This document shows, one piece after another, positions 2,303 to 24,000 of a DNA stretch of 24,000 nucleotides (positions are counted from its first letter, which is position 1; each line of letters starts with the position of its first letter). Below the pieces are notes generated by a model. That model ran no database searches. It saw nothing but the letters and a program-made list of their open reading frames with translations, and was not told the origin of the DNA. The stretch lies in NCBI GenBank assembly GCA_963827625.1, contig CAWHBS010000003.1:806306-830305 (forward strand). Reading direction: 5' to 3'. The DNA is from an uncultured bacterium. GTDB taxonomy: Bacteria; Chloroflexota; Chloroflexia; Chloroflexales; Kallotenuaceae. The position numbers were made by a program, and so were the translations under genes.

Positions 2303-3736
2303 ATGCAAGCATTGCAAAGCCCGGCGGACATTCGTGACTTCTTCTTGGGCAACCAAACTCCACTCTACTATGTCAGCACCTCGACGTTTAACCTTCTGGG
2401 GGCGGATGCTTGGATCAAGAACCTGTCATTTATCAACACTATCAATAGCTTTGCCGGCCAACATCCCAACGTGTTTGTACCGGATGACGCGCTGGTTCAT
2501 GGTCTGCAAAGGATTGAAGCGGCCAACAATTATCTGCTCAATCACCCGGCAGTCGCCGATTTTGTTCGCAGCTCGGGCTCGGGCGGCGTGCTCATGCTAA
2601 TGTTTGATGCGCTTACAGAAACACTCGCCCGGAATCTGGGGCTGACGGTAGCCTTCCCCTCCGCCAAACTACGCCATTGGCTTGATAACAAGCTGACAAC
2701 TACACGTCTGGCCGACCAGGCCGGTATTCCATCCGTACCGCATGTTCTGGCCAGGGTCGACAGCTACGCCGCCCTGCGCCGGGCCGCGGACGCACTGGGG
2801 CCGGATCTGGTCGTCCAGTTGCCGCACGGCGATTCCGGGACGACCACCTTCTTCATCTCCACTGAGACTGACTTTCTCGGCTATGCCGGGCAGATCGCCG
2901 AGCAGCCCGCCGTCAAAATCATGAAGCGGATTCGCTGCCGGCAGGCGACGATTGATGGTTGTGTCACCCGCTATGGCACGCTGGTCGGGCCGTTGATGAG
3001 CGAGTTGATCGGGTTTGCCGAATTGACACCCTACCGCGGCGGCTGGTGCGGCAACGAGGTCTTTGGCGCCGGTGCATCGGCGGTCTTTCCTCCAACGATC
3101 CGCCGGCAGGCGCACGACGCCGCGGTGGCGGTCGGCGAGCAGATCCGGCGCCAGGGCTACTGGGGCTGTTTCGGCCTCGACTTTCTGATCGACCAGGACA
3201 CGGGAGCGCTGTATCTGGGCGAGTTGAATCCGCGTATCACCGGCGTGACGGTGCTGACGAGCCAGGTGGCCCTGGATCAGAGCGAGGTGCCGCTGCTGCT
3301 CTTTCACCTGTTGGAATGGCTTGGGGTTGGCTATGTGCTGGACGTCGAGCAGTTCAATCGACGGTGGGTCGACGCCGAACAGGTGATGGGTTGGAGCCAG
3401 TTGATTATCGAGCACCTCGAGGATGCGGAGGAGATCGTGACCCACGTTCCCGCAACCGGCATCTGGCGCATGGAGCCCGAAAGCACGGTGCAGTTCTCAC
3501 GGCCGGCGTTTCAGCCGCAGGCCGTCGCCAGTGACACCGAGGCGTTCTTTCTGCGCACGGTCGATCCTGGCCACGTGCCGGGCCGGGGCCAGTCCGTCGG
3601 CCGGCTGCTGACGCGTGGCCGCCTGATGACCGACGATTACCGGCTGACCGAGCGGGCCAAAGCGTGGATCCGCGGCCTCAGGGCGCACTTTGCTGCTGCA
3701 CACGTAGCGCACAACCCAAGCTCGGCAGATGACTAA
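2303..3736 (+). CDS. ATP-grasp family ligase (carboxylate-amine ligase-like) with N-terminal pre-ATP-grasp region
   Basis: ATG at 2303 follows GACGAGG. ATP-grasp signatures are LVVQLPHGDSGTTTFFI, GYWGCFGLDFLID and the Mg/ATP loop YLGELNPRITGVT. The product is 477 aa. Confidence 0.85.
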   Translation: MQALQSPADIRDFFLGNQTPLYYVSTSTFNLLGADAWIKNLSFINTINSFAGQHPNVFVPDDALVHGLQRIEAANNYLLNHPAVADFVRSSGSGGVLMLMFDALTETLARNLGLTVAFPSAKLRHWLDNKLTTTRLADQAGIPSVPHVLARVDSYAALRRAADALGPDLVVQLPHGDSGTTTFFISTETDFLGYAGQIAEQPAVKIMKRIRCRQATIDGCVTRYGTLVGPLMSELIGFAELTPYRGGWCGNEVFGAGASAVFPPTIRRQAHDAAVAVGEQIRRQGYWGCFGLDFLIDQDTGALYLGELNPRITGVTVLTSQVALDQSEVPLLLFHLLEWLGVGYVLDVEQFNRRWVDAEQVMGWSQLIIEHLEDAEEIVTHVPATGIWRMEPESTVQFSRPAFQPQAVASDTEAFFLRTVDPGHVPGRGQSVGRLLTRGRLMTDDYRLTERAKAWIRGLRAHFAAAHVAHNPSSADD

Positions 3737-5561
3737 GCGAACCACGACGGCCGGCGGCCAGACTGGCCAGTCCAGGCGGCCCTCCACCTTCGCGGTGTTC
3801 CGCAGGCGCAATTTCACCCTGCTATGGATCGCCCAGTTCATCTCGACGATGGGCAGCGGCCTGACAGCGATCGCCAGCTCCATCCTCGTCTACCGGATGA
3901 CCGGCTCGGCGTTAAGCGTCGGCCTGATGATGCTGGCGACGGCGTTGCCTGGCCTGTTTGTGGGCCTCATCGCCGGTGTGTTCGTCGACCGATTTGACCG
4001 CCGGCGCATCATGATCGCCGCCAATCTGATCTGTGCTGCCCTCGTTGCCGCCATCCCCGTCGTGCTGCCGTTCGGGATCGGCTGGCTTTATCTCGTCGTC
4101 GTGCTCGCCAGCTCGGCGGGACAGTTCTTCGCGCCGGCGCATACCAGCCTGCTGCCTGAGATCGCCCCCGACGAGGAGCTGGCCGCGGCCAATGCGATGA
4201 TGACTATCAGCCAGTTCGGCGCGCTGACGGTTGGCTACGCCGGTGCGGGCCTGATCGCCACCTTAACCACGATTGCGTGGGCGTTCTACCTGGACGCAGT
4301 ATCGTTCCTGCTCGCGGCGCTCTGCATTCTGCTGCTCCACGTCGCGCCGCGCAACGTCAAGGGAGCGACCAATCTCGCTGCCGTCGCGCATAACCTGCGC
4401 ATCGGGCTCGTCTTCGTCCGCGACATGCCGGTGCTCCGCTCGCTGGTGCTCGTCTTTGTGCCGATCTTTATCAGCTATGGCTTTGGGAACGCGCTGTTCC
4501 TGCCGTTCGCGATCCGTGCGCTCGGCGCGACCGCGTTCGAGTACAGTCTGCTGGAAGGGCTGTTCACGGTCGGCTTTGTCGTCGGCAGCCTGTTGATGGC
4601 CGGCCTGGCCGATCGCCTGCACGAGCAGCAATGGATCACCATCAGCATCCTCGGGATGGGGCTGTTCAATGTCGCGCTGGCACTTGCGTGGTCGGTGCCG
4701 GCCGCGATCGCGTTCAGCGCGATGGTTGGTTTGCTCAACGCGCCGTCGTACATTGGACGCCAGCTGCTGATTCAGCGCACCACGCCGCGTGAGATGCGCG
4801 GCCGCGTCAGCAGCATGTTTCTGGTCACCCGCGATACGGGTTTCATGCTCGGCATGGCGGCGGCGGGCCTGGCCGACTTGTTCGACGTGCGCATGCTGCT
4901 GCTGGTAAATGCGGTGCTGTTGTTCGGCTGTGGCCTCCTGTCGTTCATCCTCCTGGGGCACGGCCAATCGATTGACGAGCGGCGCCGCGTCCCGGCCATG
5001 CTGCGCGCCGCGCCCGGGCCGGGGCTGGGCCGCGCGGCACTCCTGGCCGACATCGATCGACTGGCCATGCATTTGCCCGCTCTCGCGCACTTCAGTCGCC
5101 AGGAACGGCTAGCGCTGGCGGCACAGACGCGGGTCTATGACGCGCCCGCCGGCACAGCGATTGTGCGGCAGGGTCAGCAGAGCGATGCGACCTATTTCTT
5201 GCTCGACGGGCGAACCGTTGCGAGTTGTGTGGATGAGGGCGCCGTGCGGGTGCTCGAGGTCCATAACGCCGGCGACTTCTTCGGCGAGATCGCTGCCTTA
5301 ACCGGCATGCCGCGCACGGCCAGTGTGCTCACCACGCAGCCGACGACGGTGCTGCAGATGCCGGCAGCCGCGCTCCGGGAGCTTACGCGTGACCCACAGA
5401 TCAACCGGGTATTCCTGAGCAAGCTGTCGGAGCGCATGGAGCGGCTGCGGCTCATCGCGCTGCCGGGCTTCGGCGGCCACGACCAGGAGCTGCTGCGCGA
5501 GTTACGCACGCCCGCCGCGCAGGCGACGTCAGAAGGGCCTCCGGTGCCTGCCGCGAGCTGA
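3729..5561 (+). CDS. MFS transporter (EntS/MFS_3-like exporter) fused to a C-terminal cyclic-nucleotide-binding (CAP/cNMP) domain
   Basis: The ATG overlaps the ATP-grasp stop by 8 nt (ATGACTAA). There are about 12 predicted TM helices and the DRFDRRRIM loop typical of MFS_3. The C-terminal roughly 130 aa contain the FGEIAALTGMPRTASV phosphate-binding-cassette motif of cNMP-binding domains. Confidence 0.9.
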   Translation: MTKRTTTAGGQTGQSRRPSTFAVFRRRNFTLLWIAQFISTMGSGLTAIASSILVYRMTGSALSVGLMMLATALPGLFVGLIAGVFVDRFDRRRIMIAANLICAALVAAIPVVLPFGIGWLYLVVVLASSAGQFFAPAHTSLLPEIAPDEELAAANAMMTISQFGALTVGYAGAGLIATLTTIAWAFYLDAVSFLLAALCILLLHVAPRNVKGATNLAAVAHNLRIGLVFVRDMPVLRSLVLVFVPIFISYGFGNALFLPFAIRALGATAFEYSLLEGLFTVGFVVGSLLMAGLADRLHEQQWITISILGMGLFNVALALAWSVPAAIAFSAMVGLLNAPSYIGRQLLIQRTTPREMRGRVSSMFLVTRDTGFMLGMAAAGLADLFDVRMLLLVNAVLLFGCGLLSFILLGHGQSIDERRRVPAMLRAAPGPGLGRAALLADIDRLAMHLPALAHFSRQERLALAAQTRVYDAPAGTAIVRQGQQSDATYFLLDGRTVASCVDEGAVRVLEVHNAGDFFGEIAALTGMPRTASVLTTQPTTVLQMPAAALRELTRDPQINRVFLSKLSERMERLRLIALPGFGGHDQELLRELRTPAAQATSEGPPVPAAS

Positions 5562-23107: not shown

Positions 23108-23365
23108 TCAAGATCCGTCAGCTTCCGGTGTTGCCAGCTCTGCCGCTGCGGCAGCCGGTACGACCGGCGTCGACTTCGCAGCCGCCGGCAGCACCAGTTC
23201 CCTCAAAAAAGCAAACAACGCCTCCAGATCGGCGAAGCGGTGCGGCGCTGCCGCATCAGCCGCCTGCAAGGAGGCATGCCACGGTCCGTTGCCGTCGCGC
23301 CACAGGCGCAACAGATACACGCGATAGCTTTCCGCGTTCTGCAGGTCGCTGCTCAAGCTCGTCAT
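23108..23365 (-). CDS. Small hypothetical protein (85 aa) with YRVYLLRLWR...WHASL...FADLEALFAFL motif
   Basis: I prefer the internal ATG at 23365, which follows GAAAGG. It lies 77 nt upstream of the giant gene on the same strand. The motif resembles small unannotated proteins I recall from Chloroflexota and cyanobacteria. This is memory only, not a search. Confidence 0.6.
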   Translation of the reverse strand: MTSLSSDLQNAESYRVYLLRLWRDGNGPWHASLQAADAAAPHRFADLEALFAFLRELVLPAAAKSTPVVPAAAAAELATPEADGS

Positions 23366-23422
23366 TGATGGCCTTTCGGTCAATCGTCGCTCAACCCCCG
23401 AGCGCCAAGTGTATCCAACCGG

Positions 23423-23462
23423 TCGGACCAAACTCGGACCAGTCTCGGCCCACACTCAAACC
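23423..23462. promoter_or_regulatory. Four direct heptamer repeats at exact 11-bp phasing (TCGGACC, TCGGACC, TCGGCCC, TCAAACC): candidate SARP binding sites
   Basis: The repeats start at 23423, 23434, 23445 and 23456, each a heptamer plus a 4-nt spacer. On the minus strand a TACACT -10-like hexamer (23413-23408) lies 9 nt beyond the outermost repeat, about 45 nt upstream of the small-ORF ATG. Confidence 0.5.
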
Positions 23463-23497
23463 TGCGAAGACAGGCAGCGCGCGGCGCTCGCTGCGTA

Positions 23498-23529
23498 GTC
23501 ACGATCTCGTCACGATCGAGGAGTACAAT
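23498..23529 (+). promoter_or_regulatory. Two 9-bp direct repeats (GTCACGATC) at 11-bp phasing abutting a TACAAT -10 box upstream of the SARP gene
   Basis: GTCACGATC occurs at 23498-23506 and 23509-23517. A 6-nt gap follows, then TACAAT at 23524-23529. There is no good -35 element. The GTG start lies 29 nt downstream. Confidence 0.45.
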
Positions 23530-23557
23530 CTGGCCAGATGCGCGGGGAGAAGCAACC

Positions 23558-24000
23558 GTGCAGCACAGCATTGGCCGTCTGACCCTGACCCTTTTCGGCG
23601 CGTTTCAGGTCGTGTGCGACGGCGTGACCATCACGCAGTTCCGCGGCGACAAAGTGCGCGCGCTGCTGGTGTACCTGGCCGTCGAGTGCGACCGGCCGCA
23701 TAGCCGCGCCCACCTGGCCGGCCTCCTGTGGCCCGAGCAGCGCGACGCCGCCGCGCTGGCCAATGTGAGCAAGTCGCTGGTACGGCTGCGCACGGCCCTG
23801 AGCGACACCGACGCCACGCCCTTGCTGCTGGGCACGCGCCAGACGATCCAATGGAACGCGCCCGGCGGCGCCGACGTAGACGTGACGGCGTTTTTGCGCC
23901 TGGCGCGCTCGACCGATCCCGCCGCGCTGGAGCAGGCGGCTGCGCTGTACCGCGGGCCGTTGTTGCCCGGCTTCAGCATCCCCGGCTGCCCCGCGTTCGA
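23558..24000 (+). CDS. SARP/AfsR-family transcriptional regulator, N-terminal part (OmpR-type winged helix plus start of BTAD); runs off the window
   Basis: This ORF is not in the ORF track because it is open-ended. My own translation from GTG 23558 (GGGGAGA 8 nt upstream) is VQHSIGRLTLTLFGAFQVVCDGVTITQFRGDKVRALLVYLAVECDRPHSRAHLAGLLWPE...VDVTAFLRLA...AAALYRGPLLPGF. This is the classic SARP N-terminus. Confidence 0.8.
   Translation, partial: MQHSIGRLTLTLFGAFQVVCDGVTITQFRGDKVRALLVYLAVECDRPHSRAHLAGLLWPEQRDAAALANVSKSLVRLRTALSDTDATPLLLGTRQTIQWNAPGGADVDVTAFLRLARSTDPAALEQAAALYRGPLLPGFSIPGCPAF

Follow-up and report, generated by a model that had tools for sequence, protein, structure and literature searches.

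A 192-bp divergent intergenic region in DNA of a Chloroflexota bacterium is likely to contain two activator-dependent promoters, both lacking a -35 element and both built like the targets of SARP and AfsR regulators. The region lies within a stretch of 24,000 nucleotides, here called the window, between the gene of an AfsR-like regulator and a small open reading frame (ORF) that is followed by the gene of a giant secreted protein. Two sets of direct repeats in this region are very probably docking sites of a putative AfsR-like activator and would replace the missing -35 elements. The promoter logic is that known from SARP and AfsR proteins, with functional steps predicted here from sequence, and it appears in a phylum and a gene context without an earlier description; a full-text search for SARP or AfsR terms together with Chloroflexi, Chloroflexota or Anaerolineae found no paper.

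Arrangement of the divergent region

The features of the locus, in window coordinates, are the following.

18609..23030, minus strand: giant secreted protein, 1473 aa; its N-terminus is signal-like, and FG-GAP and GbpA_2 match weakly
23108..23365, minus strand: small ORF, 85 aa, first gene downstream of Set 1
23366-23557: divergent intergenic region, 192 bp, bounded by the small-ORF ATG (23365..23363) and the regulator GTG (23558)
23377..23372, minus strand: Shine-Dalgarno sequence GAAAGG of the small ORF
23413..23408, minus strand: TACACT, predicted -10 hexamer of the small-ORF promoter
23423..23462, minus strand: Set 1, with plus-strand starts TCGGACC 23423, TCGGACC 23434, TCGGCCC 23445 and TCAAACC 23456, start-to-start distance 11
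23498..23517, plus strand: Set 2, GTCACGATC-tc-GTCACGATC, copies starting at 23498 and 23509
23524-23529, plus strand: TACAAT, predicted -10 hexamer of the regulator promoter
23544-23549, plus strand: Shine-Dalgarno sequence GGGGAG of the regulator
23558..24000, plus strand: first 147 codons of the AfsR-like regulator gene, for the winged-helix DNA-binding domain and the beginning of the BTAD; the gene continues beyond the window

Both hexamers were assigned from sequence only. Read on the minus strand, Set 1 is GGTTTGA-gtgt-GGGCCGA-gact-GGTCCGA-gttt-GGTCCGA, that is, four direct repeats in 11-bp phase, and its 11-mers in the register of the wider family described below are GAGTGTGGGCC, GAGACTGGTCC and GAGTTTGGTCC. 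Its period-11 self-match (17/22 and 21/33) is the top period-11 score of the whole 24-kb window. This level was reached at period 11 in 0 of 5000 dinucleotide-preserving shuffles and at any period from 5 to 20 in 31 of 5000. Set 2 consists of two perfect copies, in canonical register, of the family consensus T-n-A-C-G-n-T (here T-C-A-C-G-A-T). Its 9-nt exact repeat was matched by 42 of 5000 shuffles, and the pattern T.ACG.T-N4-T.ACG.T has a single occurrence on both strands of the window, which is Set 2. The two repeat families were both recovered independently by a repeat-finding search, and they share G-T-C at the same register. No TCGGACC-N4 array besides Set 1 was found in the 24-kb window, the only DNA of the source genome covered. 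A sequence-only reading of the window had reported both sets at these coordinates as 11-bp-phased repeats, and both the positions and the spacing proved exact and beyond chance.

From the end of the proximal GGTCCGA of Set 1 it is 9 nt to TACACT. On the other side, TACAAT follows 8 nt after GTCACGA and 6 nt after the end of Set 2 as a whole. At the 17-bp position where a -35 element would be expected, the small-ORF promoter has CGAGTT and the regulator promoter has ACGATC, so that neither possesses a -35 element. The distances of 9 nt and 6 nt, and the missing -35 element next to Set 2, agree with the sequence-only reading. Scanning 23000-24000 with the sigma-70 consensus gave no promoter, which is expected without a -35 element and is not counter-evidence. 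Set 1 is predicted to provide the activator boxes of a promoter for the small ORF and the giant gene, and Set 2 those of the promoter of the regulator gene. One detail of the earlier proposal has to be corrected. Set 1 had been said to begin with the same TCG core as the TCGAGxx heptamers bound by characterized SARPs, but TCGGACC is the template-strand sequence of the promoter that it would serve, and on the non-template strand the family has T-n-A-C-G-n-T as its core, or T-n-A-G-A-G with Ser-type proteins. An Rfam search of 23000-24000 (E up to 1) returned nothing, and a known structured RNA is thus not supported.

The gap between the small ORF and the 1473-aa gene is 77 nt, and a search for a terminator-like site between them found none. 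On these grounds the two genes are probably co-transcribed. The same gene order is present in L002, where the upstream sequence is limited to 51 bp. The small-ORF protein carries the motifs YRVYLLRLWRD...WHASLQ...FADLEALFAFL and had 0 matches in Pfam and NCBIfam. A profile search of 1.84 billion representatives placed it in a family of 3690 cluster representatives (E up to 1e-3). This family is unannotated, and nearly all of its members are 60-110 aa long. The core of the protein is predicted confidently (pLDDT ~90) as beta-beta-beta-alpha, three strands plus a helix, and a comparison of the predicted structure with the PDB gave no significant match (best E = 0.6).

The adjacent regulator

Pfam matched nothing in the 147 in-window codons of the regulator. 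We extended the sequence by means of an identical public contig of 1897 bp (L001) and repaired it across a frameshift. In the extended, frame-repaired protein, the BTAD (PF03704) was detected at 87.7 bits (cutoff 22.1; E=1.3e-24). Beyond it, a Walker A sequence, GMGGVGKT, and a match to NB-ARC (E=0.0011) are reached only by a +1 frame change. For the window regulator alone, Trans_reg_C stayed below threshold (E=0.051), and the domain is recorded for several homologues. A family profile built from 30 homologues aligned with AfsR (8k60) over residues 25-350, which comprise the DNA-binding domain, the BTAD and the start of the NOD (E=8.5e-27), and with EmbR (2fez) from residue 10 onward (E=4.8e-23); weak ToxR winged-helix matches were found at profile positions 33-89. 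The protein thus shows both an N-terminal OmpR-type winged helix and a BTAD following it. We conclude that the gene at 23558 is AfsR-like by homology, with the predicted order of winged helix, BTAD and NB-ARC.

Named relatives of the window regulator are Chloroflexota proteins, and complete regulator partners at other loci have 1000-1530 aa. SARPs have been called exclusive to actinobacteria (review PMC10972967), and the literature defines them by actinobacterial origin together with control of secondary-metabolite clusters; here the organism belongs to Chloroflexota and the downstream genes are secreted/giant ones. The earlier description of this gene as a SARP is therefore retained for the AfsR-like homology but not for the type of protein, which is a large Chloroflexota regulator and not a small actinomycete SARP. 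After the NB-ARC, the closest relatives of the window regulator carry WD40 repeats (L119 5203-8181; L118 6710-8247), whereas the C-terminal repeats of AfsR are TPR. In L119, the WD40 region is called as a separate 992-aa gene.

The regulator ORF is apparently frameshifted at L001 419-420, ~130 nt beyond window position 24000 on the plus strand. The site has the sequence GAACTCGTGG, the uninterrupted version of which is GAACCGTGG. The difference is a one-base insertion: the sequence reads GAA CTCG TGG, and the family consensus LEPWREEAH needs GAA CCG TGG. Because of this insertion, the public gene call on an 862,637-bp contig stops at 237 aa, and the sequence for the BTAD and the NB-ARC Walker A goes on in the +1 frame. 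The frame change is either an artefact of assembly or genuine. In the latter case, the operator could be a relic in the source genome, its sequence intact beside a regulator pseudogene and its promoters silent or rewired. The presence of the insertion both in L001 and in the 237-aa NCBI gene call agrees with such decay. However, the gene calls of the related locus L118 are fragmented likewise, in a way consistent with frameshifts, the insertion may have arisen in assembly, and the repeats, the hexamers and the small ORF are without signs of decay. We regard a decayed system as unlikely and continue with the reading of two activator-dependent promoters.

Recurrence of the module in Chloroflexota

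A pattern scan of metagenome contigs for the small ORF yielded 208 relatives, 80 of which were kept. A genome collection contributed 33 small-ORF loci, nearly all from Chloroflexota MAGs (Anaerolineae, Caldilineales, Ardenticatenaceae, Promineifilaceae and Thermoflexales). By tblastn, 65 of the 80 metagenome loci, as well as most of the 33 from genomes, proved to have a regulator homologue upstream of the small-ORF homologue in divergent orientation. This corresponds to ~85 metagenome and MAG loci with the divergent pair, and the two genes are usually 100-320 bp apart. In L004, the small ORF is present and no upstream regulator was found within its 740-bp contig.

The intergenic regions of these loci hold 3-4 direct repeats with an 11-bp period beside a TAnnnT hexamer on the small-ORF side. 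Among 41 distinct intergenic regions, the mean best self-match was 14.05/22 at period 11 compared with 9.5-11.3 at all remaining periods between 5 and 20, and a period-11 self-match of at least 16 was observed in 12 of the 41 regions and in 0 shuffles. Self-recurrence of 4-mers amounted to 256 at spacing 11 and to 23-109 at other spacings, with CACG, TCAC, TGAC and GTCA leading. Additional recurrence peaks at periods 7, 14 and 21 result from tandem copies of GATTCGT (7 bp), of which L013 and L051 have four to five, located after the 11-bp array region and ahead of the start codon.

Each region was anchored on the TAnnnT hexamer having the most periodic upstream 33 nt. The periodicity threshold beside TAnnnT was passed by 41 of 65 loci, compared with 2.7% of shuffles. 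The anchored arrays share one register, with T-n-A-C-G-n-T at -14..-8 and at -25..-19 relative to the hexamer, and Set 1 of the window is in this same register. A occurs at -12 and at -23 (42/51 loci each) with C-G next to it, and T is found at -14, -8, -25 and -19. An extended -10 (TG at -3/-2) is frequent as well (31/51 and 39/51 loci), and nothing resembling TTGACA occurs at the -35 position of the family small-ORF promoters.

Of 75 regions, 32 have a canonical -35/-10 pair (TTGAnn-N17-TATAAT-like) directed toward the regulator gene and 2 have one directed toward the small ORF, with 5.35 in shuffles; the regulator gene in the family usually has an ordinary promoter. In the window and in L003, no such site was found in either direction. 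We did not count the apparent regulator-side arrays of L057, L053 and L056, whose intergenic regions are short, because there the array of the small ORF is simply seen in reverse.

In related loci, the gene after the small ORF commonly encodes a giant or secreted protein. In four of them, the subsequent reading frames have at least 2640 aa and run off the fetched DNA (L090 8263-16182, L101 3629-11584, L088 and L111), and the two of these frames that were scanned contain transglutaminase-core, Ig-like, FG-GAP and TSP3 domains. In other loci, this position is taken by proteins of 300-1100 aa that bear a signal, and close relatives have Big_3_3 or HemolysinCabind proteins. This recurrence supports the earlier suggestion of a link between the regulator and the giant protein, and the 1473-aa secreted protein probably forms one unit with the regulator and the small ORF.

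A recognition-helix residue covaries with the repeat core

DNA-binding domains were aligned beside their arrays, and the residue at window position 71 was scored. Arg occupies this position in 39 loci, 35 of which have CG at -11/-10 of the proximal repeats, whereas CG is found in 0 of the 15 loci with Ser (14 loci) or Asn (1 locus). Fisher's exact test of helix residue against CG core gives p = 4.5e-10, a value that ignores phylogeny. The non-Arg proteins form about six separate clades on a neighbour-joining tree, and Ser/Asn-type units tend toward T-n-A-G-A-G. L078 was rejected as an exception to this covariation, given an off-by-one register of its TGTCACG array. In a profile alignment, position 71 corresponds to R87 of AfsR, which is among the residues of helix alpha3 that make base-specific contacts according to cryo-EM (PMC11301090).

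The window regulator has the helix NVSKSL with Ser71, and this residue fits the predicted Set 1 core, the units of which have G-A-G or G-A-C at -11 to -9. At -12, Set 1 deviates from the consensus of the family: it carries C, whereas 26 of 30 Ser-type units have A. The core of Set 2 is the Arg-type consensus, whereas the adjacent regulator is Ser-type.

Conservation in two related loci

The partial contig L003 carries an orthologous locus in which the small ORF is 71% and the regulator 74.5% identical to those of the window. Identity is 80% in Set 1 and 78% in TACAAT plus Set 2, compared with 31% and 48% in the two 5' UTRs and 51% in the middle segment. Both arrays have thus been kept while the remaining spacer drifts. 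Within Set 1, three copies have undergone a concerted change of the core from TCC to ACA (GGTCCGA in the window, GGACAGA in L003), and the spacers GACT and GTTT as well as the distance to TAC(A/G)CT are unchanged. The recognition helix differs between the two regulators (NVSKSL in the window, NLSTTI in L003), and the difference includes the position equivalent to AfsR T88 (Lys compared with Thr), in parallel to the concerted change of the Set 1 core. The distal fourth repeat (23456-23462) is outside the concerted change, with GGTTTGA in the window and GGTTCGA in L003.

Set 1 is also conserved in a third relative, L118, and shows concerted core changes in both L003 and L118. TACGCT replaces TACACT at the same place in both loci, and TACAAT is identical in both. 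Set 2 has been kept as GTCACGAGC / GCCACGCTG in L003 and as GGTCACGTT / GGTCACAAT, next to TACAAT, in L118.

It is mainly because of the covariation of helix and core, together with the parallel change between the window and L003, that we assign the arrays to the adjacent regulator and not to another winged-helix protein. We also considered that the repeats might be the sites of an unrelated response regulator of the OmpR/PhoB type. The pho boxes of PhoB/PhoP are likewise 11-bp direct repeats that adjoin the -10 and replace the -35 element, with head-to-tail binding of winged helices, and the papers on AfsR also liken it to PhoB/PhoP. TCTGTCC of L003 presumably resembles a pho-box half site, which we counted in favor of this possibility. 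PhoP and AfsR have overlapping sites in Streptomyces (PMC10972967). However, PhoB and PhoP possess a receiver domain and belong to two-component systems, and neither a receiver domain nor a response regulator was found in the adjacent regulator or in the 10 largest other window ORFs scanned. Moreover, the core covaries with the adjacent regulator's own helix, and the arrays track the regulator/small-ORF pair across loci. We thus consider sites of an OmpR/PhoB-type protein very improbable and attribute Set 1 to the AfsR-like regulator.

Which protein reads Set 2 is a separate question. Set 2 had been proposed to serve the regulator gene, and it does adjoin the predicted -10 of this gene, but its Arg-type core beside a Ser-type neighbor suggests that autoregulation is perhaps not the best reading. 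L003 and L118 show the same mismatch, an Arg-type Set 2 beside a Ser-type regulator. It is quite conceivable, though we would not call it probable, that an Arg-type paralogue reads Set 2 and activates the gene of the Ser-type regulator, which in turn, by way of Set 1, activates the small ORF together with the giant gene. The core present in the two perfect copies of Set 2 occurs with an Arg helix in 35 of 39 loci and never with Ser or Asn, and several copies of the module exist in single MAGs (L099/L100 and L097/L103). On the other hand, no Arg-type paralogue is present in the 24 kb of the source genome covered, SARPs are able to bind degenerate repeats, and both sets share G-T-C at the same register. 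A single regulator might instead bind both sets, exerting positive feedback on its own gene in addition to activating the small ORF. The regulator gene is adjacent, and the 11-bp phase and the -10 register are equal on both sides. Yet the cores of the two sets differ precisely at the positions that covary with the helix residue, and most family members use an ordinary -35/-10 promoter for the regulator gene, so that we view autoregulation as possible but doubtful.

Comparison with known systems

Published rules for SARP promoters are direct repeats 11 or 22 bp apart that overlap the -35 element or accompany a poor one (PMC10936776, PMC7040171, PMC10972967), with the 3' repeat located 8 bp from the -10 (PMC10936776, PMC7040171). 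In the window, the repeats have an 11-bp spacing (four copies and two copies), lie ~8 bp from a predicted -10, and are not accompanied by a -35 element. Because the repeat spacing and the distance to the -10 match these rules, the mechanism shown for AfsR, in which protomers occupy successive 11-bp units, is likely to apply here.

The closest parallel is AfsR/afsS of Streptomyces coelicolor, a large SARP with an afs box. The order of winged helix, BTAD and NOD predicted here is the same. In both cases, 11-bp direct repeats adjoin the (here predicted) -10 of the target promoter, which has a poor -35 element or none. The covarying residue aligns with the base-contacting R87, and an adjacent small-protein gene is the direct target, here a putative one. 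Published afsS coordinates place the -35 at -38..-33, with a 20-bp spacer, and the T-C-A of the upstream repeat at -37..-35. Computed from these, the T-C-A of the downstream repeat would start 14 nt before the -10, the same offset as that of T-n-A in the Chloroflexota family. Differences concern the phylum and the repeat number (Actinomycetota with 2 repeats compared with 3-4 in the Chloroflexota family) as well as the core, which is CGTT(T/C)ATCG for AfsR/afsS and T-n-A-C-G-n-T or T-n-A-G-A-G in the family. Furthermore, afsS lies downstream of the AfsR gene, whereas the small gene of the family is divergent and is followed by genes of giant secreted proteins. We take the small protein to be unrelated in sequence to AfsS.

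The small SARPs ActII-ORF4, DnrI, PapR2 and FdmR1 likewise have a heptamer with a 4-bp spacer, often in three copies, and 8 bp between the 3' copy and the -10; GTCAGSS of PapR2 resembles GTCACGA of Set 2. These proteins have ~250-300 aa and control antibiotic clusters, in contrast to the complete partners here, which have 1000-1530 aa and downstream genes that are not biosynthetic. EmbR of Mycobacterium tuberculosis shares the winged helix plus BTAD, but it ends in an FHA domain and is without a NOD.

Proposed mechanism and implications

According to the mechanism that we propose, the neighboring AfsR-like regulator would bind Set 1 head to tail through its winged helix on one face of the DNA. 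Set 1 ends one helical turn upstream of the predicted TACACT hexamer, and the promoter-proximal protomer would contact RNA polymerase in the place of a -35 element. Transcription from this promoter would include the small ORF and probably extend through the gene of the giant secreted protein. Set 2, positioned in the same register beside TACAAT, would render the regulator gene activator-dependent, too. We infer binding, activation rather than repression, the start sites and the reader of Set 2. The sequence-only reading had proposed SARP-type operators in place of the -35 element, and the recurring arrays, their fixed register relative to the -10, the covariation of core and helix, and the profile alignment with AfsR argue for this prediction.

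Replacement of the -35 element by SARP-type repeats has been studied only in actinomycetes and described as specific to them. Our results point to a conserved form of it that is predictable from sequence across Chloroflexota. In this phylum, the predicted SARP logic goes with giant secreted proteins and with small proteins of a very large family instead of antibiotic clusters. The covariation of helix residue and core offers a candidate specificity rule for assigning regulators to promoters in uncultured organisms. Tentatively, we propose a Chloroflexota module family that would consist of an AfsR-like STAND regulator, a -35-less promoter with 3-4 boxes, a protein of ~75 aa with a beta-beta-beta-alpha fold and, often, a giant secreted protein. 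A rule of helix Arg with A-C-G and helix Ser with A-G-A-G would predict the pairing, and the locus described here might represent the lower tier of a paralogue cascade.

Additional observations

In the intergenic region of L121 (2157-2479), two ~33-bp direct repeats, CCGGTTTTGAC(G/C)CAAACTTTACCCCA(A/G)TCACCA, are situated upstream of the 11-bp units, and L119 and L120 each contain one similar copy. Elsewhere in the window, a plus-strand gene at 3729-5561 encodes an MFS transporter with a cyclic-nucleotide-binding domain joined to its C-terminus (MFS_1 E=1.6e-35, cNMP_binding E=4.7e-17).
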